NCBI GenBank assembly: GCA_041937185.1 | Contig: CP166621.1 | Span: 2,452,571 to 2,516,570 of the forward strand | DNA from: Leptolyngbya sp. BL-A-14 | Lineage (GTDB): Bacteria > Cyanobacteriota > Cyanobacteriia > Leptolyngbyales > Leptolyngbyaceae | DNA length: 64,000 nucleotides | Direction: 5' to 3' | In this document: in pieces, positions 13,998 to 58,533 of the stretch | Position numbering within the stretch: position 1 is the stretch's first letter | Layout of the letters: every line of letters begins with the position of its first letter | Notes under the pieces: generated by a model | The model's database searches: none | Seen by the model: the letters and a program-made list of their open reading frames with translations, nothing else | Told to the model about the DNA's origin: nothing | Translations under genes and position numbers: made by a program

Positions 13998-14546
13998 ATG
14001 ACTATCACCACGCAACGACTTACACTACAAGACTTTCTCAAGCTGCCTGACATCGAAGAATCGCCAGCCTGGGAGTTTGTGGCGGGAAACGTTAGCCAAA
14101 AACCGATGCCTACCGCTCACCACAGCATTTTGCAGAAGCGTCTGACGGCTGCGATCGATCAGGCTGATTCACCCTATGAAGCGTTTCCAGAACTGCGCTG
14201 TACACTGAGCAACAACTCTGTCGTACCTGCCATTACCGTGATTCATCGCAATCGCGTTCCGTCTGAAAATAGTCCCATTTCAGGCGCACCCGAGTGGATG
14301 ATTGAGATTCTGTCTCCTGAGCAAAGCACCACAAAATTGATTGCCAAAATTCAAGCCTGCTTGGCGGAAGGAACACAGCTTGGATGGCTAATCGATTCAA
14401 CCGAGCGCGTCATTATGGTGCTGCTACCCGATCGCCGCCTGATGCTGTTGAGCAATGGCGATCGTCTACCTGTCCTGCAAGACTTACCGCTCGTTTTAAC
14501 CGTTGATCAAGTCTTTGCCTGGCTACAACCATTATCAAAACCATAG
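13998..14546 (+). CDS. Uma2 family (DUF820) endonuclease-like protein
   Basis: ...LQDFLKLPDIEESPAWEFVAGNVSQKPMPTAHHS...PEWMIEILSPEQS... Confidence 0.7.
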   Translation: MTITTQRLTLQDFLKLPDIEESPAWEFVAGNVSQKPMPTAHHSILQKRLTAAIDQADSPYEAFPELRCTLSNNSVVPAITVIHRNRVPSENSPISGAPEWMIEILSPEQSTTKLIAKIQACLAEGTQLGWLIDSTERVIMVLLPDRRLMLLSNGDRLPVLQDLPLVLTVDQVFAWLQPLSKP

Positions 14547-25929: not shown

Positions 25930-25980
25930 ACCAATCGGGATGACAGGATTCGAACCTGCGGCATCCTGCTCCCAAAGCAG
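25930..25980 (-). repeat. att core copy (3' 46 nt of tRNA-Pro plus 5 nt; partial, no 5' half)
   Basis: Matches 58455-58505 exactly. The sequence diverges immediately upstream of the anticodon stem. Confidence 0.8.
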
Positions 25981-26095
25981 TAGTACTGCATTACCAAGAA
26001 CAGCGCTAGACTAGGCAGAGTAGGGGCTATCAGCACTGTTGGCAGGGTAATTAACCATCCTGAAACGTGTTGTAACGTCCCTAATCAGACACTAA

Positions 26096-26117
26096 TTTAG
26101 GGCTGATTTAGGGCTGA
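26096..26117 (+). repeat. Tandem TTTAGGGCTGA x2, identical to 58412-58433 (putative integrase arm-type sites)
   Basis: Exact 22-nt identity at both island ends in the same orientation, each followed by nnCATG. Confidence 0.6.
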
Positions 26118-27179: not shown

Positions 27180-27511
27180 CCTACGGCTCGGAGCTTGCGA
27201 AAATGCCGCTGCAAGGCTTTTCTGCAACTCGGAATGTGATATTCCCACGTCGGGCGATCGCCCTTGCTGACGTTGCGAATTTCGCCCTTAGCCTCGCTGA
27301 ATGCCCCATCAAGCCGCAATCTCTGGAGATGCTTCGGATTCTTCACGCCTTCATTTTGAAGCGCTGTTGCTGCGACGTTAGGCTCAGCCCACCCTTCAAC
27401 ATGGGCAGGAGTGCCAGCGATATAGTCGCGAAGCTGTCGCACCTCAGATTTAAGCTGGGCCATTTCGAGCAACATTTGGGCAAGCATTTTTTCGGCTTCT
27501 TGGGTCATGAT
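27176..27511 (-). CDS. Hypothetical protein, last gene of the replication operon
   Basis: Its start at 27511 lies 1 nt after the stop of the 1259-aa gene. ORF-track frame 27176..27601. Confidence 0.4.
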   Translation of the reverse strand: MMTQEAEKMLAQMLLEMAQLKSEVRQLRDYIAGTPAHVEGWAEPNVAATALQNEGVKNPKHLQRLRLDGAFSEAKGEIRNVSKGDRPTWEYHIPSCRKALQRHFRKLRAVG

Positions 27512-30500: not shown

Positions 30501-31284
30501 CTTTCTCGGCTTCCCCATGCCCCTTGTGGTTCGGGAAGATTGGATAGAGAACTTCTTTCCACCAAATATCTGAGATGGTTTCAGGAAACGCCCAGCCTTG
30601 ATAAGCAAACCAGCGGCGAAACCCTGCGACGAGTTCCTCGTAGGTGTAACGATCGTGGCTGTAGCTGAGTAACCGTTGCTCTGCATCTTTCTCCTTACGG
30701 TGGAACCCAGCAATCCGCATCGGTTGGTGCAAGCGCTCGGTAACTGGATCGGACATGAAGGCGACGATCGCCAGTCGTCTCAGGTAGTTCGCTTGCTCCA
30801 GTGGTAGATGCTGAAACGCTTTGAGATGAGCATGAATAGACTTACCGCCGCTGGTCAAGCGCGTGGCGTAGTTTAAGCCAGCAATCTGCTTGAACTGCTC
30901 GTATTTTGCCCATTGATCCTCCATTGCTAGAGAATCCATTTCGATGCCAATATCATCGGTTTCAGTGACACATCCAGCTAAAGGAAACCCGTTCGGTTGA
31001 GTGGGGATATAGGTCACGCCCCCGTCTTGATTTTGGCACCGCTCGTTAAGGTGATTCCAAGCAGTACCGACAGGCTTAAGACGTTTTCGATCCTTACCTT
31101 GACCGATCGTTGCGCGGATTGTGAAACGACCTGACTTGTTGAAGCTGCCAACAAAAACGCTGGTATCACCTTGTTTCAGCCAGATCTCACTGTTGCCGTC
31201 TTCCCCTTTGGGCTGTAGGGTGCTGATGTGCGCTTTGAAAGCTTCAAAGCCGCTAAGTCCTTGTGGAATTGAGGAAGTGTTCAT
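27505..31284 (-). CDS. Primase-helicase-like replication protein: AEP-type primase domain + Zn-ribbon + P-loop NTPase + long C-terminal region
   Basis: N-terminal domain has an acidic motif DDIGIEMD and an sGGxSIHaH-like motif TSGGKSIHAHL. Zn-ribbon CYWHD...CPAC. Walker A DGTMGVGKTA and Walker B LIVVDEAG. Start overlaps the upstream helicase stop (ATGA). Confidence 0.6.
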   Translation of the reverse strand: MNTSSIPQGLSGFEAFKAHISTLQPKGEDGNSEIWLKQGDTSVFVGSFNKSGRFTIRATIGQGKDRKRLKPVGTAWNHLNERCQNQDGGVTYIPTQPNGFPLAGCVTETDDIGIEMDSLAMEDQWAKYEQFKQIAGLNYATRLTSGGKSIHAHLKAFQHLPLEQANYLRRLAIVAFMSDPVTERLHQPMRIAGFHRKEKDAEQRLLSYSHDRYTYEELVAGFRRWFAYQGWAFPETISDIWWKEVLYPIFPNHKGHGEAEKAALVKAALEVGQAGYEAAKAQVEAERQQRREQRNQRLQAEGRSEDTQLSDLVRQTCDRLGKDAFELYNHSWQFEPSGEHARGRCYWHDSTSGNSAYISGKKGTWGYVCPACTHEKRIDAFTYWRYATYGKGAPFPRGKEYVEQAKAFLSLHGVEPPVWQPQPSRPSNVVELPTQRRQKPVAVYTAEFEGDLELLESLESDDRKQAREEAEQRRRDRWREETERIQAELNGLRIEPTIRESGRYIPKGLMRLPDKPGIILVDGTMGVGKTATALKDLVGQHRKRYPLGLEWLFTPRNLLGLQSGNTLGLPHRSTVDFARDKGRLRGTSCFESIGLISPENLPNHPPLIVVDEAGQAFKQVTYGDTCKNYHAFVIERTRQLFREVAKRDGWIVLSEDGLTNLELDFVREASGLEVVEHLKFTRQVTNPRSYYVYDSPSITGEEILIRLDKGENLVVTSDSQRWLAKIERWLQDQGIDCVFITSENSQEDWAHKCIQNPTEWLYERRPRVFGYSPTMGSGVSIDDDEGYFSGMAFHFTHLEPREAKQLCDRLRTDVPRFGYICERAATEDDLYSGSRPDLILRDLRRNKNGIAKLIDFASHAERQQDDVDLVQEWQRVDEQWNDHTTDLGFYLRHYSRYKAREAYGKTALRDNLMTIWENQGHEVTQQVLGRIDHIADDWEAVLEQIDREKAIEWAEADTSHLTPSLARSALNDPSSTSAQRLVAKKCLLEDKLPGVPLSDVDFALKAVIAKRGRFLKTTEMLWLSQHPEAAQQINRWDWLYQVSTAAKRHQFVVAHRLSVVAGKAKLLHECPLQPFIDGNVLEWDSATPEAIAVHEWALLRARQFRRFLRLTIMPKHTPTQTVNKLLRKLGYEADQVSRKGKRSDRECQYAITNREDIDRETILKALTERFLSKCEEKQETPPGSVETAVDRDSGQSAPYGENTPASPPPSWFSKDELDNIRQMWDAADCEEARSAIKQIIPLRALQAAIPELTREALAS

Positions 31285-33044
31285 TTGACCACCTCCCGCG
31301 CATCTGATAGGGCAAGGTTTAACTGCTGCTGCAAGGCTTCTAAATCAACCCCTGCAACCTTATCAGGATCGAGCGCTTCAGCTTTGGCGATATATGCTGC
31401 TTTAACCGTCTCCCATGAGGCGTTGCGATCGACTCCCAGCGTTTCATACCAGGGTGTAATCTGAAGATCAACTTCGCCCAGTTCCAGCGTCAAATGATAG
31501 CTAATCCACTGCTGCGACCATTTGCTTGCCTGATTGCAATGCCGAAACAGGTAGTTAACGAATGCTGCTTTACGGCTAGGACTATAGCGTTGGGTCAGGC
31601 AGGCATGACGCATCCACTCACCTGGTGGGTTGTGCCCAAACTCACTCACAAAATGGGCGATCGCTTCGTCAGGTGAGCGATCGGACTCGTAAGCCTGACG
31701 CTTCAATTGCCGCAACAGTTTGATTTTTTGCCGTGTCAGAGTATCGGCAAACTCGTTCAGTTGGGCTAGGACTAGCGCTTCCTGCTGGGGTTCATCTGGT
31801 TGCGCATCACCTGTAAACTCATGCCCACAATGCGGGCAAATCTGGGCGAAGACGGTCACTTCTAGCTGACAACCAGGACAGGTCTTGGTAAGCGGCTGTA
31901 CGTCATCATCCTGAACTGGCTGACTGATGTCGTAATCCTGGAACCCCATCGGGTTGCCAAACCGCTTCAAATTGCCGCCAAAATCGAGCAGGAAGTAATC
32001 TGTTTTACCTGGATAAGGACGGCTACCACGTCCAGCTGTCTGCTGAAACAATGCCCGTGACTTGGTGGCTCGAACATACAGAATCGCGCTGATTGCAGGT
32101 AGATCAAACCCAGCCGTTAGGCAACCGACGGAGCAAATCACTTTGGTGATTCCCCGCCGAACACGCTCGATGATTGCCTCGCGTTCATGGGCAGGCGTTG
32201 ACCCGACGATCACTTCAGCCGCAATGCCGCGCTGATTGAAGCGATCGCATTGCCGTCGCGCTTGCTCAACGGTTGCCCCTACCATCAGCGTTGGGCGATC
32301 CGGGCAAAGCCTCAACCATTCGTCAATAACGTGATCCAGTGCTTCTGCTTTACAGGCTTGTTCGGCGATGTCCGAATCAACGAATGTGCCACCTCTAACG
32401 CGAAGCGTTTCTAGATCAATCGCACCTGCTAGGTGAAAGCCGCGACAGGAGACAGCGCCGCCACGCTTAATGATCTCTGGTGGCTGTGGTCCAAGAACAG
32501 CTTTGTCGTACCGTTGCCCTAGACATTCTTTAGAGCTTAAGCGCCAGGGTGTAGCCGTTAGACCGATTTTAATGGCATTGGGAAAGAAGTTATCGATCGC
32601 GGCGTAGGCTGATTGGAAGGCGCTGATATGCGCTTCATCCGCCACAATCACATCAATACAGCCCAGCAGAGCGCCTAAGTCTTGACCACGACGCAGCCTG
32701 CTGGAGATGGTCTGAAGTGAGGCAACGATAACGGGTGCCGCCTCGTCCACTGGGCGATCGCCTTGCAGGATGGTGCAGTGAACGCCAAAGGATTGTAGAG
32801 TGCGAGCCGTTTGCTCTAGCAGCACATTGAGCGAGACCAGAAACACGCAGCGTCTACCCTTGCTGATAGCATCCTGCATAATCTGGGCGGCGATGACTGT
32901 TTTCCCGGCACCCATGACGGCAATCATCAAGACACGTAGGCATTTGGAGCGGATCAGGGCGTAAACCCCAGCAATCATGGCGATTTGGTAATCGCGCAAC
33001 TGAATTGTCTGCTGCTGCGGAATGGTAATGGTTTGGGCGATCAT
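31281..33044 (-). CDS. ResIII-like SF2 (DEAH) helicase with C-terminal Zn-ribbon and degenerate J-domain-like tail
   Basis: Motif I AVMGAGKT, motif II VIVADEAH, motif VI QTAGRGSR, Zn-ribbon CPGCQ...CPHCGH, and tail WYETLGV...AAYIAKAEALDPDK. Confidence 0.7.
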   Translation of the reverse strand: MIAQTITIPQQQTIQLRDYQIAMIAGVYALIRSKCLRVLMIAVMGAGKTVIAAQIMQDAISKGRRCVFLVSLNVLLEQTARTLQSFGVHCTILQGDRPVDEAAPVIVASLQTISSRLRRGQDLGALLGCIDVIVADEAHISAFQSAYAAIDNFFPNAIKIGLTATPWRLSSKECLGQRYDKAVLGPQPPEIIKRGGAVSCRGFHLAGAIDLETLRVRGGTFVDSDIAEQACKAEALDHVIDEWLRLCPDRPTLMVGATVEQARRQCDRFNQRGIAAEVIVGSTPAHEREAIIERVRRGITKVICSVGCLTAGFDLPAISAILYVRATKSRALFQQTAGRGSRPYPGKTDYFLLDFGGNLKRFGNPMGFQDYDISQPVQDDDVQPLTKTCPGCQLEVTVFAQICPHCGHEFTGDAQPDEPQQEALVLAQLNEFADTLTRQKIKLLRQLKRQAYESDRSPDEAIAHFVSEFGHNPPGEWMRHACLTQRYSPSRKAAFVNYLFRHCNQASKWSQQWISYHLTLELGEVDLQITPWYETLGVDRNASWETVKAAYIAKAEALDPDKVAGVDLEALQQQLNLALSDAREVVK

Positions 33045-34674: not shown

Positions 34675-35253
34675 CTAAATACCCTTGCGAAACTCTTTAG
34701 CCGCCTCAAGCCTAGATGTTTCAGCCAGCAAGACGCAACGTGAAAGGTGAGCCATATCGAGAGAAGCCAGTTCAGGGATTTCACTACAATCGATGCGCTC
34801 ATAGCCATCAGCCCGCAACCTATAGAGGCTAAATAGCCCATCCTCCCAGAACCAGACCTCAGGCACACCTAACGCCTGATACCTTTGCAGTTTAGCTGTG
34901 CTGCCACTGCTAAAGATGACCTCGATCGACAGGTCTGGTGGTGTTTTCGGCTGTCCAATGCAGTACGACTCATCGGCTTGGGCAGAGACGACATTCTCGC
35001 GCTCTTGAGTAACAGAGCCAGTTGGCGCAAACTCAATGTTCTTCGCCAAAAAGAACGCCTCCAGCAGCATCCCAATCACTGACTTGAAAAACTCGTGGTC
35101 AAGACCTGGCATGAGGATTTCGATCGTCCCTTCGTAATAAGCCAACCGCACACCGGGCGAATCTTCTGACGCTTGCTGAATGAGCTTAAATTTGTCCCAA
35201 GTTCCTTGCAGAATGATGCGCTGGTCAGGGGCTTTTGAGAGTACCTGCGTCAT
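34675..35253 (-). CDS. Uma2 family (DUF820) endonuclease-like protein
   Basis: ...LQGTWDKFKLIQQ...YYEGTIEILMPG...PDLSIEVIFSSGS...YQALGVPEVWFWE. Confidence 0.7.
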   Translation of the reverse strand: MTQVLSKAPDQRIILQGTWDKFKLIQQASEDSPGVRLAYYEGTIEILMPGLDHEFFKSVIGMLLEAFFLAKNIEFAPTGSVTQERENVVSAQADESYCIGQPKTPPDLSIEVIFSSGSTAKLQRYQALGVPEVWFWEDGLFSLYRLRADGYERIDCSEIPELASLDMAHLSRCVLLAETSRLEAAKEFRKGI

Positions 35254-38907: not shown

Positions 38908-39248
38908 TGTTGCCTGGCTACGAGCCCGAAGACGAGCCACAGGAAGACGATCGCATTGATTACGCGCTGCAAGGGATTAGCCGTTTTACGGGGCTGTTTG
39001 CCTTGGGCGTGACCGTTACTTTAGTTGTGCGCTGGATGCCCGCACTCTTGCCCTTCTATTGGATTGGGGCGATCGCCTGCATTCTTTCCTTAGCGCTGCC
39101 TGCCTATCTTTCCCGTAGCGCAAGGTTACTGGCAATTGCAATCGCGCTCATTGTTGCCATCTTCTCAGGTTGGTTTGATGCACTCAACCACACCACACAG
39201 CAGCTCAATCAACAAGTCCAAACGCAAGTGAAGGAGGTATTGAAGTGA
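38880..39248 (+). CDS. Membrane protein (3 predicted TM segments)
   Basis: Hydrophobic segments. Its stop overlaps the start of the downstream ATPase gene. Confidence 0.4.
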   Translation: MFDRYQSPLMLPGYEPEDEPQEDDRIDYALQGISRFTGLFALGVTVTLVVRWMPALLPFYWIGAIACILSLALPAYLSRSARLLAIAIALIVAIFSGWFDALNHTTQQLNQQVQTQVKEVLK

Positions 39249-40798
39249 AAGACCCCTATCTACCGCAGATTCTAGGGCTGCTGGCTGCTGGCATGACTGC
39301 GACCGGCTTAAGCATTTCAGGCTACCTGCATCAGCCAGAAACGTTCCGCTTTCTGGGTACTGAGCTGACCTATCAAGCCGCCTATCGCAAGATTCCGCTG
39401 AGTCTGGCTGGCTCTGGTTTGTGCATCTCCGCTTGGCTACTCACTCAGACCCGCAAAGATTATCGACGGCAATACGAGCAATGGGAACGCCAAATGCTAA
39501 TGAAGCAAGGGCAAATGCAGGCGATCGCGCATCAAGCAGAACTGGAAGGGTATCAACAGGTGGCTCAGTTACAGGCTGCCGAACGGCTTTACCCCCAGAT
39601 GGCACCGTATTTGTCAGATGTCCAAGATGCCGACTATCAGGAAGTGTCAGCGCCACAACCGCAGGCTACCCCGCAGCCACAGGCATCAACCGCTGCTCCT
39701 GGACAACCAGCCATGCCTGTTACTCCCACGTCGGATTCCACGTCCGACCCGACGGCTTACCTGCAAAACTTCCTGGAATATCCAGGGCTCTTATTTGGCG
39801 GTATGGGTGCTGGGAAGAGTTGGACAGCGCGTTACCTGGTCATGCAAAAAGCCCGTGCTGGGCATCAGGTCGTCGTGCTAGACCCTCATGCGGCCAATCA
39901 CGAATGGCAAGGCATTCGGCATATCGGTGCCGGAATGGATTACCGCGCGATCGCTGAGTTCTTGTCCTGGTATCTGGATGAAATCGAGCGCCGTTACCAA
40001 GAGTTCAACAAGTCAGGGCTGAGTGAGGAAGACTGGCAGCAGAGTGTGAGACAGCAGGGGCGCATCATCAGTGTGGTGTGTGAGGAGATGACCAACTGGG
40101 CGGATCGATTGCCCGGTGACATCGGCAGCCGTTTCTTCAAGTCAGCCATGAGTGACAGCCGCAAGGTGTTGATGCCGCCATTGTTTGTGGCTCACGATCG
40201 CACCTTGTCAGCACTGGGAGATGCCAAGGGCGTTGCCCGGTTACGTGATGCAGCGCTGCTGGAATTAGAACTGATTCCCACCATTCACCCCACAACGCGG
40301 AAGCCAGTTTCAAGCGGTCAGGGCAAGTTAAAGCTGCCTGGTCATGGTGAATGGTTGCCTGTTGAACTGCCGAAGTGCGATCGCAAAATCACAGACTTTA
40401 CCGTCTATCAGCAGCCGCAACAGCAGCCCTATACTCAACCACAATCAACACAGCAACAAGCACCGCTACCAACACAGCAACCACAACCAGACTTCCGAAC
40501 TCAGGTTACTAAGTGGCTTAAAGATTGCTGGGAAGCAGAATCGCCACAAGATGAGCCAAAAGCAGCACCGAGCAGAATCGATTCTCTACCCGATGGCAAC
40601 CTGAGAAACTTAGCAGCTTATCTACGCAAGAAAAAGCAGATAGCTGTGAGAGATGTCAAGCGAAACTGGGGTAGTTCCTACTCGTTAAATGGTGAGCAGG
40701 TACAAGATTTGTTGATTGAATTAATCGAGATGAATCTAATTGAGACCTTCTTACCTGACACTTCTAAGGCTGAATGGGTGCGATGGTCTGAAACATAG
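39245..40798 (+). CDS. Membrane-anchored P-loop NTPase, TraD/VirD4/FtsK-like (putative DNA-transfer coupling protein)
   Basis: N-terminal TM segments, Walker A GGMGAGKS followed by VVVLDPH (resembles the hhhDPKG motif of coupling proteins), and a Walker-B-like IISVVCEE. Confidence 0.4.
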   Translation: MKDPYLPQILGLLAAGMTATGLSISGYLHQPETFRFLGTELTYQAAYRKIPLSLAGSGLCISAWLLTQTRKDYRRQYEQWERQMLMKQGQMQAIAHQAELEGYQQVAQLQAAERLYPQMAPYLSDVQDADYQEVSAPQPQATPQPQASTAAPGQPAMPVTPTSDSTSDPTAYLQNFLEYPGLLFGGMGAGKSWTARYLVMQKARAGHQVVVLDPHAANHEWQGIRHIGAGMDYRAIAEFLSWYLDEIERRYQEFNKSGLSEEDWQQSVRQQGRIISVVCEEMTNWADRLPGDIGSRFFKSAMSDSRKVLMPPLFVAHDRTLSALGDAKGVARLRDAALLELELIPTIHPTTRKPVSSGQGKLKLPGHGEWLPVELPKCDRKITDFTVYQQPQQQPYTQPQSTQQQAPLPTQQPQPDFRTQVTKWLKDCWEAESPQDEPKAAPSRIDSLPDGNLRNLAAYLRKKKQIAVRDVKRNWGSSYSLNGEQVQDLLIELIEMNLIETFLPDTSKAEWVRWSET

Positions 40799-44123: not shown

Positions 44124-44156
44124 TCAACCTTAAAGCCTAGAACTAAAGAACCACTA

Positions 44157-44537: not shown

Positions 44538-45245
44538 ATGTCTGTCAACGCTTCAGCCTGCTGGCTCAAAATCTTAATTGGCGCTGACGCCCAGGACTGG
44601 AGCAAGACGCTCAAAAGTTTCGACGTGGGCTTACCCAAGCGCGATCGCAGTGGTTTGCTACAAACGACAGCCACGCTGCTGCTGACGTATTGGGATTATG
44701 CGCCAGAGTCAATGAATCCACGGCTTAACCCTGCACGGTGGCATCGTGGGCAGACTGTCAACGTGCTTTTATCCTTTGATGGCGTAACTTACACACCGCA
44801 CCCACTGGGGACGCTATACATCGTCAAAGAGCCGTTACCAAGCAACCCCGATACACCCGACCTTACGTTGCAGTTAGGTTGCAAGCTGGCTCTCAAGGAC
44901 TATGCCGAACCAGACAACGACAAATCAGGCGTGATCCTTGGGACGCCGACCGCACGCACGACAGCAATTAGCAACATCCTGGCAGCAGCGGGTATTAATA
45001 CGCTCACCGGCACGATCGATGCCTACCCTGTCTCGCATCCACCGCCAAAAGTCGGGAGCAGTTACGTACAGCAAGCGGGCACGGTTGCTTACCCAGGCTT
45101 CAAAGCACTGTGGCAAGACAACTTAGGCAATATTCAAGCGGTTGAAGTGGCGGCAAATGTGAGCGCGCGTAGCGATCAAGTTGCGTCTCGCCGAATGGGT
45201 CGGCAGGAGCCGTTGCCATCAAACTATTACAGATGTGTGAACTAG
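44538..45245 (+). CDS. Hypothetical protein
   Basis: 235-aa ORF. The start is uncertain. Confidence 0.35.
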   Translation: MSVNASACWLKILIGADAQDWSKTLKSFDVGLPKRDRSGLLQTTATLLLTYWDYAPESMNPRLNPARWHRGQTVNVLLSFDGVTYTPHPLGTLYIVKEPLPSNPDTPDLTLQLGCKLALKDYAEPDNDKSGVILGTPTARTTAISNILAAAGINTLTGTIDAYPVSHPPPKVGSSYVQQAGTVAYPGFKALWQDNLGNIQAVEVAANVSARSDQVASRRMGRQEPLPSNYYRCVN

Positions 45246-45586
45246 TATTAACCTTTGAAACGTAAATTATAGTCTTTGAGAGCGGTCGCTCTATTGTTTA
45301 GAAAGCACTAGCTTGAGAGCATCTCTATCGTGAGAGGGAGGTAGGTTTTGGTCACCTTCTCCAAGCATCTGCAAGGTTGTCTATTATTGAGTAAGAGGAA
45401 GCGGTCATTTGGCTCATCAACAATTCTTCAGCGGTGAATTGAAATGACAAAACACTCTCGGCGGGAGCATCGGTCGGGTTTTGTCTTGCCGGAGTGTCAG
45501 CTTTCCTCACCTGAACTTCAGCTCTAAAGGACAACATTTTTTCAAGCGCAACATTTACATACAGCACTTCAATCTTTAGGTTAAAA

Positions 45587-48451
45587 ATGAGCGTGTTACG
45601 GCCTGCAGAGGAGGTGGAGCGGCTTGCCATTCTCCATCAATATCAGATTCTTGATACTGAGCCGGAAACGGCTTTCGACGATATTGCCCGCCTCGCTGCT
45701 TACCTTTGTGGCACGTCGATCGCGATCGTTAATCTCATCGATGACCATCGTCAGTGGTTTAAAGCCAAGGTTGGACTAGCGCTGTCAGAAGTGCCACGCC
45801 ACGTCGGTCTGTCGTATCTTTGCGTCGAGCACGGGGATGTCATTGTCGTGCCGGATACGCTGGCCGATCCCATCCTGGCTCAGAATGCGCTGGTTACAGC
45901 CTATCCCTACGTGCGGTTTTACGCGGGCATACCGTTAAAAACACCAGAAGGGCATACGATCGGCACGCTCTGTGTGCTGGACGCGGTGCCCAAGCAACTC
46001 ACTCCCGAGCAGATCGATGCGTTGCGATCGCTGGGCCGTCAGGTGGTGGGTCAGCTCGAACTCCGGCGCAATGTATTCAGTCTGGCTCAAACCACACACC
46101 AATATCAGCAAGCCGAAGCCGCGCTCGAACGGGTGGCGGAAGATAACCTGAAATTGGCACAGGCAATAGCCTCTGTGTCCGACGGCGTGGTGATTACCGA
46201 TCCAAACCGACCGGACAACCCGATTATTTACGCGAACCCGGCGTTTTCCCGCATCACGGGCTACACCGAAGCGGAAATCGTGGGTCAAAACTGCCGCTTT
46301 TTGCAGGGTCACAACACTGATCGGGCGGTCGTGGCCGAAATTCGTCAAGCACTCAATGAGCAACGTGAGATTCAAGCAACGTTGCTGAATTACCGTCAGG
46401 ATGGCACACCGTTTTGGAATGAGTTAAAGCTGGCTCCGGTGCGATCGCCGCAGGGGGAACTGCTCTACTTTGTCGGGATTCAAACGGATATTACCGCTCG
46501 TAAACTGGTGGAAGCTGAGCGGAATCAACTGTTAGAGCAAGAACGACTCGCACGGACAGCTGCCGAGACCGCTAGTGAGTTGGTCACGAATATTCTCGAA
46601 AGCATTACCGATGCCTTTTTTGCACTCGATGACGACTGGCGCTTTACGTATCTGAATCATCAAGGTGAACTGTTGCTCCAGCGCTCCAAAGGCGACTTGC
46701 TCGGCAAACGCTTTTGGGATGAGTTTCCCGAAACGGTGAAAGACAGCTTCTACCAGGAATTGCAGCGGGTTGTCTTAGACCAAACCCGTGTTCAGTTTGA
46801 AACGTTTTATCAGCCGCTCAATCTCTGGTTTGCGGTGCACGCGTATCCTGCCAAGGCAGGATTGTCCGTCTATTTCCAAGACATCACAGAGCACAAGCAG
46901 GCAGCGCAGAAGATCCTGGAGCAGGCAGCGTTGCTGGATGTCGCCACCGATGCCATTTTTGTCCGCAGCCTCGACCACCGAATTCTGTATTGGAACAAAG
47001 GGTCTGAGCGGCTGTATGGCTGGCAAGCCGCCGATGTACTGGGGCAGAATGTGGTCGCGTTGCTGAATCGAGACAGCCTGGCGCAACTCGATGAAGCGCT
47101 GAGAATTGCTGTGGCACATGGCGACTGGCAGGGTGAACTCGCCCAATTCACGCAAGCGGGGAGCCCGTTGACCGTCGCCAGTCGCTGGACACTCATGCGA
47201 GACGAGTCAGGACAGCCGCAAGCCATTCTCACGGTCAATACTGACATCACTGAGAAGAAGCAGTTGGAAGCGCAGTTCCTCCGCACACAGCGGATGGAGA
47301 GTATCGGCACCCTGGCCAGTGGGATTGCTCACGACTTGAACAACATCCTGACACCCATTTTGTCTTCGGCCCAATTGTTGCTCATGCCAAACCTCCTTAC
47401 CAACGAGCGCAAGGAGCATTTTTTAAAGACGATCGAACTCAGCGCGAAACGGGGCGCGTCCCTGGTCAAGCAAGTACTGTCATTCAGCCGCGGTGTGGAA
47501 GGGAAACGTACGGCACTGCAAGCGCGTCATCTCATTGCCGAAATTCAGCACATCGCACTGGAAACCTTTCCCAAATCTATTGCGCTTAACGTCGAGGCGG
47601 CCCCTGATCTCTGGCTGGTTTCGGGTGATGCAACGCATTTGCATCAAGTGCTCATGAATCTTTGTGTCAACGCCCGCGATGCAATGCCTACTGGCGGCAC
47701 GCTGAGCATCACCGCTACCAATTTCATCATTGACGACAGCTTTGCCCGCATGCACATTGAAGCACGGGTCGGTACCTACATTCTAATTACGGTTGCCGAT
47801 ACGGGCACGGGTATTCCAGCGGCAGCATTAAACCGTATCTTCGAACCATTTTTTACCACCAAAGAACTGGGCAAAGGCACTGGTCTAGGGCTTTCAACCG
47901 TGCTGAGCATTGTCAAAAGTCATGGCGGCTTTGTCGATGTAATCAGTGCTCCCGGTCGGGGCACGCAATTCAAAGTGTATCTCCCCGCTATTCAGGCGCG
48001 AGAAGCCGTGTCAACGCAGGCGTCGGCTTTGCCTGGGGGGCACGGCGAGCTAGTCTTAGTGGTCGACGACGAAGTGATGATTCGACAAACGACCCAGGCG
48101 GCCCTGGAAGCCTACCACTACAAAGTGCTAACGGCAAGCGACGGGATTGAAGCGATCGCGCTCTACGCCCAGCATCGAGATGCCATTCGCTTGGTTTTGG
48201 TGGATATGATGATGCCATTGATGGATGGTCTGACCACGATTCGCACCCTGCAGAGAATGAACCCACAGGTCAAAACGCTGGCGCTCAGTGGCCTGCTTTC
48301 CAGGACGCAAATCCCTGAACTAGAAGACCTTCATGTCCCAACCGTACTATCTAAACCCTTTACGACAAAGGAGCTTTTGGAAGGTGTGCAGCAAGTGCTT
48401 GAGCGGTCATTGGATAGTAGACCGCCGATGCAAACACCAACAATGCCGTAG
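45587..48451 (+). CDS. Hybrid sensor histidine kinase: GAF - LOV (blue-light flavin-binding PAS) - PAS - PAS - HisKA - HATPase - REC
   Basis: LOV signature [44 protein letters not shown]...[11 protein letters not shown]...YFVGIQTD. H-box IAHDLNN. G-boxes GTGLGLS. Receiver domain with VLVDMMMP and SKPF. Confidence 0.85.
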
Positions 48452-48561
48452 CGGAAGTAGGTGTTTTGGGTTCTGTGATCTCAAGTGAAACCTGATCGCT
48501 CAAGCGCTCTAAACGCCGTTCTAATTGGCCGTTCGCTGATTGATTAGCAAGGCTAACTGGA

Positions 48562-48834
48562 GTGACCGCGATCCTCACTCGGGACCAGCGGCAAGGGCTT
48601 CGCGATGGGCAACCCTACAGCCACTGGAGTTACTACATCAACAGCCTAGCGACCACAGCACAACAATTTGCTGAAGATGCCTGCCCACTCAAGCTCGCTC
48701 AGGCACTGGAAAACTGGGGACTGATTCGCACTTGGGTAGTCAATCTCTTTCGCTTACAGGGTGAAGCGTCGATAACCAAAGCGCAGCGTCGAGTGGCACA
48801 TGATATTCATGCCCTTTTCCTACTCATACAATGA
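48562..48834 (+). CDS. Hypothetical protein
   Basis: 90-aa ORF downstream of the kinase. Confidence 0.3.
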   Translation: MTAILTRDQRQGLRDGQPYSHWSYYINSLATTAQQFAEDACPLKLAQALENWGLIRTWVVNLFRLQGEASITKAQRRVAHDIHALFLLIQ

Positions 48835-49035
48835 ATTAACCCTGCCCTTCTCCCTGGTCTGCTAGGGATGGGAGTTGCAGCGCTGCGAAAGAAGCGAAAA
48901 GAGGCATCAGAACAGGTAGCTGAAACTGTCGAAGCTTAAATCTCCTTACGTCTAGTTGCTCCTCCTGCGTGTTAACGTGGGAGGCTTTTAGTGCTTGTAG
49001 CTGGCAGGGTTGGGGTGTCCATTCATAAGCAGGGC

Positions 49036-49063
49036 TAACCCTGTCGCACTGGCAGGGCTTTTC
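49036..49063 (+). terminator. Second copy of the CCCTGTCGCACTGGCAGGG + T-run hairpin
   Basis: A 24-nt identical core to 44159-44182. Confidence 0.45.
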
Positions 49064-49292
49064 ATGCAAACGCAAACGCATCCAGAGTTTTTAGAGTCAG
49101 CTTTCAAGACTATGGATGACTGAAGCGATCGTGCTCAGTTAGGTTTTCCACCGTCTGGTGGAAAAGTCTCAAACCCTATTCCGAGTTTTCCGAGTCGAGT
49201 TCTAAGACTAAGGATGACCGGAGCGATCGCGACGAGTGCCCAGGCGCAATACCAGAAGGCGAAACCCATACGATCGGCGTTGATCCGTGCCC

Positions 49293-49652
49293 TTAGTCCA
49301 GAAACTCGCTCCATGGCACGGACTCAAGCTCGTCTAGGGTGCTGCACACCCGCACCTCAAACTTGCTGACTTCTAAGGACAACTCATTTGAAATGTGCAT
49401 CAGTCTAAGACGGAGATAGTACTCATTCAAACTCAACATGACAGCGATCGTCGGCTCGGCAGTGAATACCCGCAACTGCATTTTGGGCCCAAGGCAAATC
49501 ACCCGAAAAAGCAAGCGCTTTTCTTCAATCACATGCCTCCAGTCACCGTGCAGGCAACTGTAGAAAACGGTCTCGCAGATCCTCGACAATTTGCTCAAGC
49601 TGGAAAACATCGACGCCAGATCCTTGCCCTGGTCTGACGATTCATCCGGCAC
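49293..49652 (-). CDS. Hypothetical protein (only sizeable ORF in a 2-kb gene-poor stretch)
   Basis: 119-aa ORF with no recognisable motif. Confidence 0.25.
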   Translation of the reverse strand: MPDESSDQGKDLASMFSSLSKLSRICETVFYSCLHGDWRHVIEEKRLLFRVICLGPKMQLRVFTAEPTIAVMLSLNEYYLRLRLMHISNELSLEVSKFEVRVCSTLDELESVPWSEFLD

Positions 49653-50793
49653 TAGGATCGCACCTTCTGCATCTTTATTTTTTTAATCTCTACGGGTCCA
49701 ATTCCCCGTCTGCTTGCAGCGTTTGTAGTGGGCGGAAGTGCGTCCCGAAGGGAAAATTCCGTAATGCCTCGTCTGCTTGCAGCGAGGATAGGAATTTTAG
49801 CGCTCCGCAACTTTTACTTGGAAAACCTTTTTAAGGTATCAGACATTTTTTCTCTTCTTTCAATCAGAAAACCTACCTTTCCCCGCGCCATAAAAGCATC
49901 GTGAAGGTTTGCTAAAAGACGAGAAAGCCCGACACCAGCGATCGGGCTTGTAATGAAGAACTTACTGTATTTTTGCTGGCTAGCTTAGCGTACCCAAGCA
50001 GATTGAATCGGTGAACATTGCCAACCTACGTGTCCTCATCCTCGTTATCCCACGATTCTTGGTCATAACCGAGGCGCTGCAGCATTTTTGGGTTCTTGGG
50101 TCAAAGAGCACTGCGCAGGGAGCACCGTGCAGACAGGCGAGGGGCAGAAAATTGCCAGAAGTCTCGACAGAAGGGCTTCTAACCGCAATCAACTTGCTAA
50201 GAGTTACGTTAAGACTTAGTCGTCTCAATGTGGACTATACCTTTTTGAGGGGTCGTGCAAAGAACCCCATTTTATGCTCCTGACTACTCAACTCATCCCA
50301 ATTGTTTTCATAGGAGTCTGGTGGACGATAGCGATCACTCTGCCAGGGCAGACGGTCGTAGGCTTGAGTTCTGCTTAGGAGTTTGCCTAAAGACGAGAAA
50401 GCCCGATACCAGCGATCGGGCAAGTATTCACCTTGAAAAAACGCCAGTAACGAAACTGGCGTGCTTATTGTGCCCATTCATAAGCAGAGTTAACAGAGCG
50501 ATCGCCCTTCCCACTCTGGACTAGCTGCAAACTGGCACAATTACCGAAAGTCTTACGCAGTGCTAGTTTCACTTTTTCAGTGTCTTGCACTTCTGCCATT
50601 TAGGCAGTGAACCCAATGGACTAAATACTAACTGAAAGTGCTATTGAATAAATGTTTTAGATTTTTAGGTTAGTCCAACTTTTCAACTTTGGACTACGAT
50701 TGGACTAAACGCCTTAAATGTGACAGTTGCTGAATAAAGCGATTGTGCCAGTTACGTTAGCGCTGTTAGCCCGTTAGCAATTCAGGTTTTCTT

Positions 50794-51006
50794 ATGAGTC
50801 AGCAGCCGATGGTCGGGTGTCGAGTGCCCTCTGCTTGGCATGAGGAAATTATAGCCATCACTGAGGCAACCGGGCAGAGCAGCAGTGAAGTGGTGAGAGA
50901 GGCGATCGCTCTCTACCTAAAGAAATCGAAAGCGGTTACAGTGCGATCACGCCTGGACGACTTGGAGCAACGGTTGAACAAGCTGACGCTACTGGTAACG
51001 CAGTGA
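50794..51006 (+). CDS. Ribbon-helix-helix (CopG-family) DNA-binding protein
   Basis: ...SSEVVREAIALYLKK... RHH helix pattern, 70 aa. Confidence 0.5.
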   Translation: MSQQPMVGCRVPSAWHEEIIAITEATGQSSSEVVREAIALYLKKSKAVTVRSRLDDLEQRLNKLTLLVTQ

Positions 51007-51140
51007 TATCCAGGAAACTGAAAATCTGAGTGCGATACCGAATGAGACAAAATGAAGTGAACCCACCAATTCGACAGGGAATTGAAGAATTTAAGGTTTC
51101 GCTTCATTCCTTTTATAAAAAAGTCACAGGGACGCTGAAT

Positions 51141-52126: not shown

Positions 52127-52921
52127 TCACAAAGTAAACAAGGTCTTGAAAGTTTTGACTTTAGCGGTATCAATGCCACAGTCCAGCTTTGTGAGCGGGG
52201 TCAAACTCTTCCACTTACTCCTGTTCGCACTGGCAATCAGATCAGAGACGGCTTCAGGGTCGATCGTGTCAAAGCCCCCAATTTTATAGGTGTTTAGATA
52301 GTTCAAGCGCTCAAAGATTTCGGCTTTCGATGCCTGCTTGATGCTGATGACGGACGGTGGTGCTGGCGGTGGCGGCGGCGGAGTCAAGTAAAAGACAGCG
52401 CTCAAAGCATCGAGCTTCTTGCCCTTCGTGATACCGCACCCAAGCTTAGTAATGGGTGTGAAGTCTTGCCAGGTACTGCGATCCACAGCCGCAATCTTAC
52501 TGGCAGCGATCGTGGCATCGACTGTTTTCAAGGGACTGCCAGGCTGATTAACAAGATGCTTCAAAACCGACTTGATTGTCTCTCTAGAAGCAGTTGTGAA
52601 ATTCACTTTGGGAGTCACTTCTCCAGCGAGAATGCGAGCCTGTTCAATGTCTGGCGTGCTGGACTTAATGACAAGGCACCAAAGTTCCTCTAGTCCTGCT
52701 TGAGTCGCAACGACATAGACAAAATGGTTGGTAACTGCCCTGTACGTATAATCTTCGACCTCTTCCACTAATAACGGCATCCAGTTATGCCCGCCAGTTT
52801 TGAGGAGCGCCTCAGCAGCAGCAGCAACAATGTACTCAGGGGGAGCTGCATAATCGTCAGTGGGTAGAATGCTGTCGATCGGCAGACACATGAGTTGCCC
52901 GACGTTATCAAAATCACTCAT
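52127..52921 (-). CDS. ParB-like N-terminal domain protein with a duplicated C-terminal ~45-aa repeat
   Basis: N-terminus LMCLPIDSILP...MPLLVEEVEDYTYRAVTNHFVYVVA is ParB/Srx-like but degenerate. Internal repeats RSTWQDFTPITKLGCGITKGKKL and RSKWKSLTPLTKLDCGIDTAKVK are separated by a PPPPPPAPP linker. Overlaps the upstream ParA-fusion gene by 8 nt. Confidence 0.45.
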   Translation of the reverse strand: MSDFDNVGQLMCLPIDSILPTDDYAAPPEYIVAAAAEALLKTGGHNWMPLLVEEVEDYTYRAVTNHFVYVVATQAGLEELWCLVIKSSTPDIEQARILAGEVTPKVNFTTASRETIKSVLKHLVNQPGSPLKTVDATIAASKIAAVDRSTWQDFTPITKLGCGITKGKKLDALSAVFYLTPPPPPPAPPSVISIKQASKAEIFERLNYLNTYKIGGFDTIDPEAVSDLIASANRSKWKSLTPLTKLDCGIDTAKVKTFKTLFTL

Positions 52922-54278
52922 TTAGAAAATACTCCCTGGCGAGTTCAAGATAATAGGCGTGAATTTTCTTGTTTTTGAGCACAGCAGGTACGCGTGCAAA
53001 AGCAGAACTGGAAACAACGGCATAGTCTGGGAGGTTGAACACGGTTTTGTCCACGTTGCCAGGTCGGATCTTAGGAAAAAAATACGGCAACATATTAATC
53101 CCATCTGCTGGGTTTGCCTTTAAAATTCGCTCAATCTCCTCGCGTGCCATATCGATTGAGCGACCAGCAGCAGGACTGCCATTGAAGAAAATGGGAAGCG
53201 CGATCGGCCCACCATCTTGCCTTAACGTTTTGACCTTGGGCACAAACTCCTGCACAACTCTGGCAGCATTATGGAGCGATGACAGATCATCATGGCGAGT
53301 GGGAATCAGTACAGCATCAGCTGCATAAACCCCACTCTGACTAAAAAAAACCCATTGTGTCGGACAGTCAATAAAGATGTAGTCATACTCGTTGCTAAAC
53401 GGTTGCAGCAAATCTCTGAGCCGAGCGGACGCTTTCTGTACACGGGCTTGGGTATCTTGGGTAAACGCTTCCATACCCAGATCTGCTGGTATTACATCAA
53501 AAATGTGATACACCTTCCCAGCTCTTAGAGTCACTTTATACGGCACGATGGTCGAGCGGATATCTAAAGCTCTGTCTTTTAAGCACTCAGACAGCTTGAT
53601 GTTGTTTGGCTGTAGCCCTAAAGATGTTGTCAAATCACGCTGGGAGTCGAAGTCAACCAATAGTACTTTCTTCTTCTCAGCTGCTAAAGCCGATGCCAAG
53701 TTGATAGTCGTCGTCGTTTTACCTACGCCACCCTTGTTGTTGTAGACACAAACACTGAGGCTGCGAGGAGGATTGTCAATCAGTTTCTTGATTTGATCAA
53801 CGACAGACTTAATATTCTCTCCAGTAATTTCAATGCATTTCGTTGCAGGCACAACAGCCTTGTTGTGATGTCTAAAAAGCTGAATATGAGTTGAGTTAGT
53901 AATAATACCCCAGTGGGCAGTCTTGCCTTTGGGGGAGAGCAGATACCGTTTTAGTTGTGCTCTCGTTGATAGGTATTGTCTAGAGCCCTCTGCTAGATTG
54001 ATGGGGCTGCCTCCACCTGTAAAGCGCCCTTTAATTTCAACCATTAAGAAAGGATCGGCTTTAGTAAAGCTGAAGTTGTCATCAGCTGTGTTCTTGCGAG
54101 CAGCAAAATCAACACTGTCGCTTCCTGCTCCAGTCGCCAATTCACCTACGCGCTCATTTGCGCTAAAGCCCAGCGCTTCCAACAAGTAAGGGACAAAGTG
54201 ACTACCCACGTCAGCTTCTGTTGCCTGCGGAGGAATATTGGCTAAAACTTTGCTCCAATCCATCAACGCTGACCCCAC
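52914..54278 (-). CDS. Fusion of an HSDR_N-like PD-(D/E)xK nuclease-fold domain to a ParA/MinD-type Walker ATPase
   Basis: N-terminal ~150 aa: EADVGSHFVPYLLEALGF...DSVDF...DPFLMVEIKG, a restriction-enzyme N-terminal-like D...E.K pattern. C-terminus has the deviant Walker A YNNKGGVGKTTTT, LLVDFDSQ and IFIDCP of ParA. Confidence 0.6.
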   Translation of the reverse strand: MGSALMDWSKVLANIPPQATEADVGSHFVPYLLEALGFSANERVGELATGAGSDSVDFAARKNTADDNFSFTKADPFLMVEIKGRFTGGGSPINLAEGSRQYLSTRAQLKRYLLSPKGKTAHWGIITNSTHIQLFRHHNKAVVPATKCIEITGENIKSVVDQIKKLIDNPPRSLSVCVYNNKGGVGKTTTTINLASALAAEKKKVLLVDFDSQRDLTTSLGLQPNNIKLSECLKDRALDIRSTIVPYKVTLRAGKVYHIFDVIPADLGMEAFTQDTQARVQKASARLRDLLQPFSNEYDYIFIDCPTQWVFFSQSGVYAADAVLIPTRHDDLSSLHNAARVVQEFVPKVKTLRQDGGPIALPIFFNGSPAAGRSIDMAREEIERILKANPADGINMLPYFFPKIRPGNVDKTVFNLPDYAVVSSSAFARVPAVLKNKKIHAYYLELAREYFLNE

Positions 54279-54682: not shown

Positions 54683-55417
54683 TCAATAGCTGCGTCCATT
54701 ACCACCGTTGTAGAAAGCTGCTCTTTCGGTAGAGCTTAGCGTCCGGGTCCAGATTGCTAAGGTGTCAAGATAGCCGTTCAGGCGTTGGTTGTCGCTGAAG
54801 TTGACATCATTGCCAATCACTAGAACGTTGCTGGCTGCGTACAAACCAGTACCGGAGAACGCACTGGATTGCACCAATGTACCGTTGACTTCCAGGTTCA
54901 CGGTTTTGGCTTCAGCATCGAACCAGCCAATGCAGCAAAGCCATGTGTTGGTGGGTGGATCAGTCAAACCCGCCAGTGTGACTCCCGCTCCGGTTTGATC
55001 GCCCACATAGAAAGCTAGGCTGCCATTGTAGTAATTTAAGCCACAATGCCGTCCAAAGTTAGTATTAGAGCGATTGATAATGGCTGTTCCGCCCGCTGAG
55101 GGAACCTGCCATGCTTGGACATTAATCCAGCAAGCGAAAGTAAAGCTTTGGCTAATAGTGAACGCTGTAGCCGTGTATAACGCTGACGAAGTGCTGATGT
55201 TGAAGTAGTTAAATGATCGCCCATCCCAGCAGTGACCAGGTTTGCCATTCTCTACGATATTGCCTGACCCGCCAGCATTGTCTGTAGGCAAGTGGTAGCC
55301 ATTGGGTGAACTGTCGTTATAGTTCTCGAAGTCATACCATGCAAGCAATCCGGTTTTGAGGATGTCAGTTGCGCTCCCACCAAAGCCAGCAGGTTTGATA
55401 AACAACGGCATCGGCAT
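54683..55417 (-). CDS. LamG/concanavalin-A-like lectin-fold protein (paralog of the 55646 product)
   Basis: Gly/Ser/Thr/Asn-rich beta-sandwich-type composition. Aligns with its paralog at ...WxCxGWFDAEAKTVNLEVNGTL and ...WHYVCVSRSGTSTMQGWIDGT. Confidence 0.45.
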   Translation of the reverse strand: MPMPLFIKPAGFGGSATDILKTGLLAWYDFENYNDSSPNGYHLPTDNAGGSGNIVENGKPGHCWDGRSFNYFNISTSSALYTATAFTISQSFTFACWINVQAWQVPSAGGTAIINRSNTNFGRHCGLNYYNGSLAFYVGDQTGAGVTLAGLTDPPTNTWLCCIGWFDAEAKTVNLEVNGTLVQSSAFSGTGLYAASNVLVIGNDVNFSDNQRLNGYLDTLAIWTRTLSSTERAAFYNGGNGRSY

Positions 55418-55645: not shown

Positions 55646-56368
55646 TCAAGAGTTGGGGAACGCAGCATCCGGGACAGCCGATCCGTCTTTGCTCTGCCCT
55701 GTGGTTAGTCGAATCTCGTCCATAAAACCAGGAAAGAAGGCTGAGCCTGAAGCATCAACGCCAATACGAGCCTGAGAAAGCACTGTGGCGTAATTAGAAG
55801 CGGTTGAAGTGTTTAAGCGTCGAGTGCCATCAATCCAACCTTGCATCGTTGATGTACCTGATCGGCTCACGCAAACGTAGTGCCACTCGTTCAACGAGAA
55901 GCCACCCGTACCGCTGGCACCACCCGTATAGGAATCATCGAGATAAAACCCGTAAGTTGAATCCAGATACAGTTGCAAGATTGAGTTACCGAAGCTGGGC
56001 GAAGTTGGTTGCAAGTTGAGCCAGCTATAACGACCTGCTGCTGTCATGTAGATCCACGCTTCATAGATCCAGTTGCCGCTGCCAGGGCTAAGAGCAGCAC
56101 TGTTAGGCAGGATTAAGTAATCGGTTGAACCATTGAACGCGATCGAGCTGCTGCCGTACTTGAATTGAGCAGTGCTCGTAACTGGAGTGCCGCCAGGGGC
56201 AATATTGTGGACATAACTACTGTTATCGGTGAATGTCGAGCCACCGTTACTGCCCTCGCTATGCAGCAACAGCCTGACGTTGCTATATGAAACACCATCA
56301 GCCGTATAGCCACCACCACCTGCCGGTGGTGTACCTGATCCAAGCATCGTACCTGGGAAAGTAAACAT
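55646..56368 (-). CDS. LamG/concanavalin-A-like lectin-fold protein
   Basis: See the 54683 entry. Confidence 0.45.
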   Translation of the reverse strand: MFTFPGTMLGSGTPPAGGGGYTADGVSYSNVRLLLHSEGSNGGSTFTDNSSYVHNIAPGGTPVTSTAQFKYGSSSIAFNGSTDYLILPNSAALSPGSGNWIYEAWIYMTAAGRYSWLNLQPTSPSFGNSILQLYLDSTYGFYLDDSYTGGASGTGGFSLNEWHYVCVSRSGTSTMQGWIDGTRRLNTSTASNYATVLSQARIGVDASGSAFFPGFMDEIRLTTGQSKDGSAVPDAAFPNS

Positions 56369-58411: not shown

Positions 58412-58433
58412 TTTAGGGCTGATTTAGGGCTGA
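58412..58433 (+). repeat. Tandem TTTAGGGCTGA x2, identical to 26096-26117
   Basis: Exact identity with the left-end copy. It lies 22 nt from the att core. Confidence 0.6.
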
Positions 58434-58459
58434 TTCATGACCCTGATCCCCAAAACCAA

Positions 58460-58533
58460 TCGGGATGACAGGATTCGAACCTGCGGCATCCTGCTCCCAA
58501 AGCAGGCGCGCTACCAAGCTGCGCTACATCCCG
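58460..58533 (-). tRNA. tRNA-Pro (anticodon UGG), CCA not encoded
   Basis: Hand-folded cloverleaf: acceptor CGGGATG/CATCCCG, D-stem GCGC/GCGC, anticodon stem CCTGC/GCAGG with loop TTTGGGA, T-loop TTCGAAT, 74 nt. Confidence 0.9.

Follow-up and report, generated by a model that had tools for sequence, protein, structure and literature searches.

Histidine kinases make up roughly half of the LOV proteins in prokaryotes, and one of them, a hybrid of Pseudomonas syringae in which the LOV kinase is fused to a response regulator, binds flavin mononucleotide (FMN), autophosphorylates under blue light and passes the phosphate to its own receiver domain (PMC3684834). The known cyanobacterial LOV proteins include Anabaena All2875, Alr3170 and Alr1229, Synechocystis Slr0359 and the Rec-LOV-GGDEF cyclases, some of which were shown to bind FMN and to photocycle (PMC8640849, PMC13501900). 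In Rhizobium leguminosarum, the LOV histidine kinase varies between strains (PMC8227245). Here, we describe a gene from Leptolyngbya sp. BL-A-14, a strain isolated from fresh water at Enid Lake (Mississippi) whose chromosome is CP166621 (PMC12341861). This chromosome has 7.19 Mb, of which we analysed a stretch of 64 kb (hereafter the window). The TruB protein encoded in the window is 100% identical to the one of this strain. The gene product (XGV99636.1) is named merely "PAS domain S-box protein" in GenBank. We consider it probable that it is a soluble, multi-sensor, blue-light-regulated LOV hybrid kinase, whose gene originated at the rsmH locus and now lies within a 32.5-kb element integrated at a tRNA-Pro gene.

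A predicted blue-light hybrid histidine kinase

In the ORF (open reading frame) listing of the window, the gene is one frame of 954 codons with an ATG start (Table 1). Pfam and PDB searches gave its product the domain order GAF-LOV-PAS-PAS-HisKA-HATPase-REC. As no transmembrane segment was predicted, the kinase looks soluble.

We compared aa 190-335 with all PDB chains using phmmer, and the top matches were all LOV photoreceptors. The best was YF1, the YtvA-LOV/FixL chimera (4gcz, 2e-49); others were oat phototropin LOV2 (about 1e-33), the Brucella LOV histidine kinase (about 1e-31), the Arabidopsis phot2 LOV, aureochrome and short LOV proteins. In pairwise alignments over about 130-143 residues, the domain was 43% identical to AsLOV2 and 49% to YtvA. 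The GXNCRFLQ motif is present as GQNCRFLQG at aa 233-241, with NCRFLQG starting at residue 235 and the predicted adduct cysteine, C236, encoded by the TGC codon at 46292-46294. C236, R237, Q240, R253, N268, N278 and Q299 (codon 46481-46483) align with C450, R451, Q454, R467, N482, N492 and Q513 of AsLOV2, which we take to be the flavin-site positions of this reference. All seven canonical residues, the adduct cysteine included, are therefore kept. In the AlphaFold2 model of the kinase (mean predicted local distance difference test score, pLDDT, 73.8), the LOV core scored 87-92, and its strands and helices follow the order expected for a PAS fold of about 105 residues. By sequence, the domain carries the features of a photoactive LOV. 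The original prediction, which had been made from the DNA letters, had named this ORF, a canonical LOV domain with an adduct cysteine in NCRFLQG and the domain order given above, and our searches bore it out on each of these points, the order being far beyond what chance would give.

The kinase and receiver modules were also intact. H582 lies in AHDLNN, the N box is at 691, and the G1 and G2 boxes read DTGTGI (738) and GKGTGLGLS (762). Across 16 aligned relatives of full length, H582 and the three boxes were invariant, as were D827/D828, D873 (the phospho-acceptor, codon 48203-48205), S901 and K923 of the receiver. By these features, the HisKA kinase and the receiver read as competent. The AlphaFold2 model has continuous helices between all modules, at 140-195, 303-325, 434-452 and 555-598, the last of which runs into the His-bearing DHp helix. 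A helix-linked layout of the kind modelled here is the usual arrangement for passing a signal along a parallel dimer.

The only clear PDB relative of the GAF domain was the GAF of the P. aeruginosa GAF-GGDEF cyclase (4zmu, 9.5e-25), and the sole other match at E ≤ 0.1 was a marginal one to a Nif regulator (0.086). We rejected a bilin-binding GAF, since no phytochrome or cyanobacteriochrome matched in the PDB at E ≤ 0.1. Without relatives of these two types, the GAF domain is not a second photosensor. Both extra PAS domains gave only weak, generic PDB matches.

More than 5,000 relatives of the kinase turned up in a protein search. Many of these are 915-949 aa long, with 45-55% identity over 97-98% coverage, and come from Microseira, Scytonema, Chroococcidiopsis, Calothrix and others. 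Within the family, the sensor region is shuffled: at the LOV position, the canonical NCRFLQG is found in some members, NWRLLCG or DWRLLCG in two, and an unrelated PAS domain in several. The NWRLLCG and DWRLLCG proteins (P0053 and P0062), one of them from Chroococcidiopsis cubana, are LOV-like with Trp replacing the adduct Cys. The third PAS domain (aa 450-558) is conserved across the family, and the second is of a different type in the relatives of 50-55% identity.

We hypothesize that the LOV domain binds FMN, as characterised LOV kinases do, and that blue light would drive a covalent adduct between flavin C4a and Cys236. A change at Gln299 and in the beta-sheet would then reach the helix after the LOV domain (aa 303-325), and the signal would continue through the two PAS domains and the helical linkers to the long His582-bearing helix. 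Autophosphorylation at H582 by the HATPase domain would be altered, and the phosphoryl group would move intramolecularly to Asp873 of the receiver and from there to a partner whose gene would lie at another place in the genome. Inputs other than light probably enter through the N-terminal GAF and the two extra PAS domains. FMN binding, altered autophosphorylation and transfer to the receiver are proposed steps that the P. syringae hybrid also carries out in vitro (PMC3684834). In this model, light could either activate or inhibit the kinase.

Relocation from the rsmH locus and the tRNA-Pro element

The 80% identical orthologue of the kinase gene lies between ndhH-rsmH and an O-methyltransferase gene, with an arginine decarboxylase gene further downstream. 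The order ndhH-rsmH-LOV kinase-methyltransferase was seen in the complete genome of Stenomitos frigidus ULC029 and in four metagenome contigs. In BL-A-14, the kinase gene is preceded by a relic of the rsmH 3′ end, which reads EVAANVSARS, a 1-nt frameshift and then KLRLAEW, versus ...EVAANVRSRSAKLRIAERSS* in RsmH. Between relic and gene lies a non-coding region that aligns with the Stenomitos-type rsmH-LOV intergenic spacer. The intact rsmH of BL-A-14 itself lies elsewhere; it was read on a 1.3-kb contig only, and the 286 nt downstream of it do not resemble the sequence upstream of the LOV gene. RsmH of BL-A-14 is 88% identical to that of the Stenomitos lineage, TruB 81-88% and the kinase 80%. 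As these values are comparable, the kinase has diverged about as much as the core genome. From this match and the rsmH relic, we infer that the kinase gene is a relocated chromosomal gene and not original cargo of the element.

Our model suggests that the kinase gene was originally beside rsmH, as it still is in Stenomitos. Later, a 3.3-kb piece would have been copied or moved, made up of the final ~64 nt of rsmH, the spacer and the kinase gene. The tyrosine integrase would have put the element at tRNA-Pro, and in BL-A-14 the 3.3-kb piece is now inside it. The rsmH scar would be a clean example of a sensory gene leaving its core locus for mobile DNA, and the relocation bears on how repertoires of light responses vary between strains. 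At the left edge of the piece, a chimeric ORF (44538..45245, +, 235 aa) without family match takes its last ~20 codons from the rsmH relic; its true 3′ end was probably lost on arrival of the LOV block. Downstream of the BL-A-14 rsmH (1040..1326 of short-read contig L097), runs of GGCAGAA-type and CAAAACT heptamer repeats extend up to the contig end, and a CAAAACT-type run also matches positions 1699-1733 of the window.

ARAGORN and Rfam identified only one tRNA in the window, a tRNA-Pro(tgg), and Rfam reported nothing else over the whole window. A 51-nt direct repeat, made of the 3′ 46 nt of this tRNA and 5 nt downstream, brackets a span of 32,525 bp that contains the kinase gene. Past the 51-nt core of the left copy, 25981..26012 resembles a degenerate tRNA-Pro 5′ half (shared TAGCGC...TTGGTA), so that this attachment site looks like a decayed whole tRNA. 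The integrase gene begins 140 nt inside the left repeat, and the C-terminus of its product (...YDLRHAW...MGHS...VYHRW) has an R-H-R-Y-like motif. As its Pfam Phage_integrase score is below the cut-off, we regard it as a divergent member of this family. The 11-mer TTTAGGGCTGA has four exact copies in the whole 64 kb, arranged as two pairs, one just inside each end of the element. When one mismatch was allowed, there were 8 matches versus 1.1 expected, a count reached in 0/100 shuffles. These pairs are candidate arm-type integrase sites.

Left of the element are core genes (KAS, transketolase-like, RtcB, EF-G-like, TruB and psbA). Most ORFs inside it have no family, and those with one encode a helicase, a Uma2 endonuclease, an SH3 protein, a HerA/AAA_10-like ATPase, a ribbon-helix-helix protein, a ParA-like ATPase and two LamG proteins. 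PHROGs, run on ten element proteins, gave nothing except the integrase and a weak ATPase match; consequently, the element cannot be called a prophage. The original prediction had placed the kinase on an island with psbA just outside. Both statements agree with what we found: the repeats and the integrase bracket the kinase gene, and psbA (24034..25116) lies 0.8 kb beyond the left end, though 20 kb from the LOV gene.

Outside BL-A-14, the 3,296-nt block with the kinase gene is 96.9% identical to a contig of Oscillatoriales cyanobacterium Centralia_MAG_596 (a metagenome-assembled genome, MAG) and a Joint Genome Institute (JGI) metagenome contig. Beyond 45181-48476, nothing is common to the window and the Centralia contig. 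Transposase genes of the IS110, DDE_3 and DDE_Tnp_1 types flank the Centralia copy; tblastn with these transposases detected no transposase remnants around the LOV block in the window. The two copies are 92.6% identical over 45181-45586, a region whose first 26 nt are the end of the rsmH relic. The coding parts differ at 71 positions without gaps, with 48 synonymous and 15 nonsynonymous codon differences, which indicates that both relocated copies have been under purifying selection after relocation.

A TruB or RsmH with 90% or more identity to that of BL-A-14 was absent from the collection that includes the Centralia data, and a contig of the same metagenome carries the psbA-neighbour gene at just 74% nucleotide identity. 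We read these as hints, none of them decisive, that BL-A-14 and the Centralia organism may belong to different lineages. The TruB-bearing JGI contigs, which came from other samples, did not place the Centralia organism. Tentatively, the rsmH-scarred core photoreceptor gene may have been captured into mobile DNA and then moved between distinct Leptolyngbyaceae lineages, ending in the tRNA-Pro element of BL-A-14 and in a locus flanked by insertion sequences (IS) in the Centralia MAG. If true, the kinase would be a documented case in which an entire blue-light input module has recently spread horizontally among cyanobacteria. The original prediction had proposed that light signalling can move between strains on this island. 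The 96.9% identical copy in a completely different, transposase-rich context makes such movement plausible, with the qualification that the gene was not cargo of the element from the start. A second qualification is that photoreceptors on mobile replicons are not unusual, as LOV domains occur in 304 plasmid records.

Table 1 Features of the kinase gene, its domains and the surrounding element in the window.
Feature	Position	Strand	Evidence or remark
LOV hybrid histidine kinase gene, 954 aa	45587..48451	+	ORF listing, Pfam, PDB matches
GAF domain, aa 26-154	45662..46048	+	Pfam GAF 2e-14
Long helix joining GAF to LOV, aa 140-195	46004..46171	+	predicted, AlphaFold2, pLDDT 62-85
LOV core, aa 199-304	46181..46498	+	Pfam PAS_9 7e-40
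J-alpha-like helix after LOV, aa 303-325	46493..46561	+	predicted, AlphaFold2
Second PAS, aa about 332-433	46580..46885	+	Pfam, relatives' alignment, AlphaFold2
Third PAS (PAS_4), aa 450-558, directly upstream of the kinase helix	46934..47260	+	Pfam
HisKA/DHp, aa 574-636; phospho-acceptor H582 = codon 47330-47332	47306..47494	+	Pfam 1e-10
HATPase_c, aa 680-801; N box 691, G1 738, G2 762	47624..47989	+	Pfam 6.5e-24
REC (Response_reg), aa 823-934	48053..48388	+	Pfam 1.7e-19
Relic of rsmH 3′ end, ~64 nt, left edge of relocated block	45143..45206	+	upstream-region alignment
Non-coding upstream region moving with the gene	45207..45586	+	aligns with Stenomitos-type rsmH-LOV intergenic spacer
3,296-nt block shared with the Centralia copy	45181..48476	+	96.9% nucleotide identity
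tRNA-Pro(tgg), integration target	58460..58533	-	ARAGORN, Rfam
Left attachment repeat, displaced copy of tRNA-Pro 3′ part	25930..25980		51/51 identical to 58455-58505
Right attachment repeat, within intact tRNA-Pro	58455..58505		51/51 identical to 25930-25980
Divergent tyrosine integrase, 352 aa	26121..27179	+	phrog_1 3.6e-12; Pfam Phage_integrase 1.7e-3, below cut-off
Tandem pair of 11-mer TTTAGGGCTGA near left end	26096..26117	+	exact-match scan
Tandem pair of 11-mer TTTAGGGCTGA near right end	58412..58433	+	exact-match scan

Several other features of the element were recorded. Just inside it, two overlapping genes (27505..33044, -) encode a 1259-aa protein without Pfam or PADLOC match and a 587-aa protein with ResIII/Helicase_C, a UPF0547 zinc ribbon and a DnaJ-like tail. 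For this pair and other genes of the element, PADLOC gave only generic helicase matches; the pair may be an uncharacterised defence or maintenance module. A ribbon-helix-helix (CopG-type) protein is encoded at 50794..51006 (+) and a ParA-like ATPase with an N-terminal extension of ~170 aa at 52914..54278 (-); these plasmid-like partition genes suggest that the element may derive from, or exist as, an episome. Two adjoining genes (54683..55417 and 55646..56368, both -) encode paralogous Laminin_G_3 (concanavalin-like lectin) proteins. Genes for Uma2-family putative endonucleases are present both in the core part (13998..14546, +) and in the element (34675..35253, -), and this family also adjoins truB and the transketolase gene in related genomes.

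Around the HerA/AAA_10-like ATPase gene (39245..40798), there is a 24-nt tandem pair inside its 3′ part (40438-40485) and a 23-nt tandem triplet just downstream (40836-40906). On L093, a contig from a Centralia metagenome, a stretch 65% similar to 40514-41061 adjoins a homologue of the psbA-neighbouring 139-aa gene. After the kinase gene, 48480..51140 (2.6 kb) holds no ORF above about 120 aa and contains repeated hairpin-containing elements (49907-49952 and 50381-50426; 49001-49039 and 50456-50494). A terminator-like 28-nt hairpin occurs on both sides of the LOV block (44154-44181 and 49035-49062).

Alternative explanations

Some observations weigh against a light-regulated kinase on an integrated element. 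For this kinase, flavin binding, a photocycle and the direction of light regulation, which could be activation or inhibition, are predictions. Two PAS domains separate the LOV domain from the kinase, unlike in characterised LOV kinases, so that coupling could be weak or depend on other signals. We found no cognate response regulator, and near the kinase gene there is neither a response regulator nor an Hpt gene. In close relatives the LOV domain is swapped for a non-LOV PAS or its Cys is replaced by Trp, which suggests that light input is dispensable for the core function of the family. GC content and GC content at third codon positions of the element genes overlap those of the core genes, giving no contrast in composition. 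Atypical base composition supports but does not define genomic islands, and the lack of it thus does not exclude that the gene lies on one. No unoccupied tRNA-Pro site was seen in the relatives reached through TruB homologues (Stenomitos rutilans, S. frigidus and metagenome contigs); synteny of the truB/psbA region is not kept in the Stenomitos relatives, which makes this comparison uninformative. When metagenomes were scanned with the 139-aa gene located between psbA and the left repeat, three loci came up, none with psbA or a tRNA nearby.

With these points in mind, one could suppose that the LOV domain binds flavin while the protein acts mainly as a sensor of redox, a metabolite or another chemical, with the GAF and two PAS domains dominating kinase control and light being minor or vestigial. 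Three further sensor domains are indeed present, the sensor conserved throughout the family is the kinase-nearest PAS and not the LOV domain, and the relatives without a canonical LOV keep all else. In the BL-A-14 kinase, however, every photochemically relevant residue is kept. The LOV region is almost unchanged between the two 98% copies, and the changes along the gene are mostly synonymous. To our knowledge, canonical LOV sequences of such quality have been photoactive in every tested case; the P. syringae hybrid is one of them (PMC3684834). We consider a mainly chemical sensor unlikely. That the relocated copy is non-functional baggage, either not expressed or decaying, seems very improbable to us. 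A simple scan found no sigma-70-like promoter upstream on the + strand, and no partner gene lies near the kinase gene; such a scan, however, does not cover the diversity of cyanobacterial promoters, and about 400 nt of native upstream sequence moved along with the gene. The 954-codon frame is intact with all catalytic residues kept, and the 48:15 ratio of synonymous to nonsynonymous differences from the other relocated copy indicates purifying selection.

The mobility of the element is where a rival explanation has a real, if lesser, chance of being right. The element could be an old, immobile, fixed remnant, with the kinase inherited vertically and shuffled locally, and the 97% identical Centralia copy would then be a same-species orthologue that involved no transfer. 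Consistent with this, the identity of the kinase to its Stenomitos orthologues matches that of the core genes, the composition of the element is not distinct, and an empty tRNA-Pro site was not found in the relatives examined. Moreover, the GTDB species representatives returned the Centralia MAG and not BL-A-14, and the two could be one species. Against it, the displaced attachment copy is identical over its whole length despite being under no selection, the integrase has an unbroken reading frame and the 11-mer pairs are exact at both ends, all of which argue for a recent or still competent element. The missing close TruB and RsmH and the divergent psbA-neighbour gene in the Centralia data also speak against a single species. 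We retain a blue-light-regulated hybrid kinase of rsmH-locus origin within a tRNA-Pro-integrated element as our preferred reading.

Comparison with known LOV systems

Functionally, the closest systems to the BL-A-14 kinase are the LOV hybrid kinases of Pseudomonas syringae and Xanthomonas (LOV-HisKA-HATPase-REC, about 534 aa, PRK13557). Like them, it combines a canonical LOV domain carrying the adduct Cys with a HisKA kinase and a fused receiver, and it is an orphan without an adjacent cognate regulator. In contrast, it has an N-terminal GAF domain and two PAS domains between LOV and kinase, its LOV domain is not fused directly to the DHp helix, and its host is a cyanobacterium, not a plant pathogen. 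PRK13557 was the best NCBIfam match (423.5 bits), with the best stretch covering aa 461-939 only; membership was rejected, as the score is below the cut-off of 631 and the sensor region differs.

The kinase core is FixL-like, as in YF1 (4gcz), and a signalling model with a parallel dimer and helical linkers likely applies here by analogy. The output of YtvA is STAS, not a kinase, and YF1 is a synthetic protein; neither has a GAF domain, extra PAS domains or a receiver. The NCBIfam YtvA family (NF052652) was rejected, with 186 bits versus a cut-off of 250, covering the LOV part only. The LOV kinases of Brucella, Caulobacter and Erythrobacter share a similar LOV domain (match of about 1e-31), and that of Brucella also has an intervening PAS (LOV-PAS-HK, where HK is the histidine kinase). 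These kinases are of the HWE or HisKA_2 type without a fused receiver, whereas the BL-A-14 kinase is of the HisKA type. The Brucella-type blue-light-activated histidine kinase family (NF052306) was likewise rejected, at 165 bits versus 450 and over the LOV part only. As every score stayed under its cut-off, the protein is mechanistically a LOV hybrid kinase but falls in no curated equivalog. A phototropin, which has two LOV domains and a C-terminal Ser/Thr kinase, was also rejected, as the BL-A-14 protein has one LOV domain and a histidine kinase output and resembles phototropins in the LOV domain only.

The described cyanobacterial LOV proteins, known since the studies on Anabaena and Synechocystis (PMC8640849), are multi-domain sensors, often with GAF domains, as is the BL-A-14 kinase, but outputs of the GGDEF/EAL type predominate among those studied. 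The GAF-LOV-PAS-PAS-HK-REC architecture, to which this example is added, has many database members and is frequent among filamentous cyanobacteria; our literature search found no experimental study of it. Of the 304 plasmid records matched by the LOV domain alone, 44 are conjugative. We dropped the category "GAF-LOV kinases on plasmids", as the top plasmid matches with GAF and PAS domains (Sphingobium, Roseomonas) carry a non-LOV PAS. Searching the literature for genomic islands that carry LOV receptors gave nothing specific.

Our analysis replaces the generic name "PAS domain S-box protein" by a finer annotation, a probable blue-light photoreceptor kinase, and leaves the current view of LOV signalling unchanged. 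The kinase belongs to a well-known class of LOV photoreceptors, and only its rsmH scar and its IS-flanked twin copy are mildly unusual. As with plasmid-borne or strain-variable LOV photoreceptors, such as the Rhizobium leguminosarum LOV histidine kinase, a LOV sensor is here part of the accessory genetic material. Unlike in the plasmid-borne cases, the sensor is carried here by a chromosomal element integrated at a tRNA, and its gene bears an rsmH-tail scar from its core locus.

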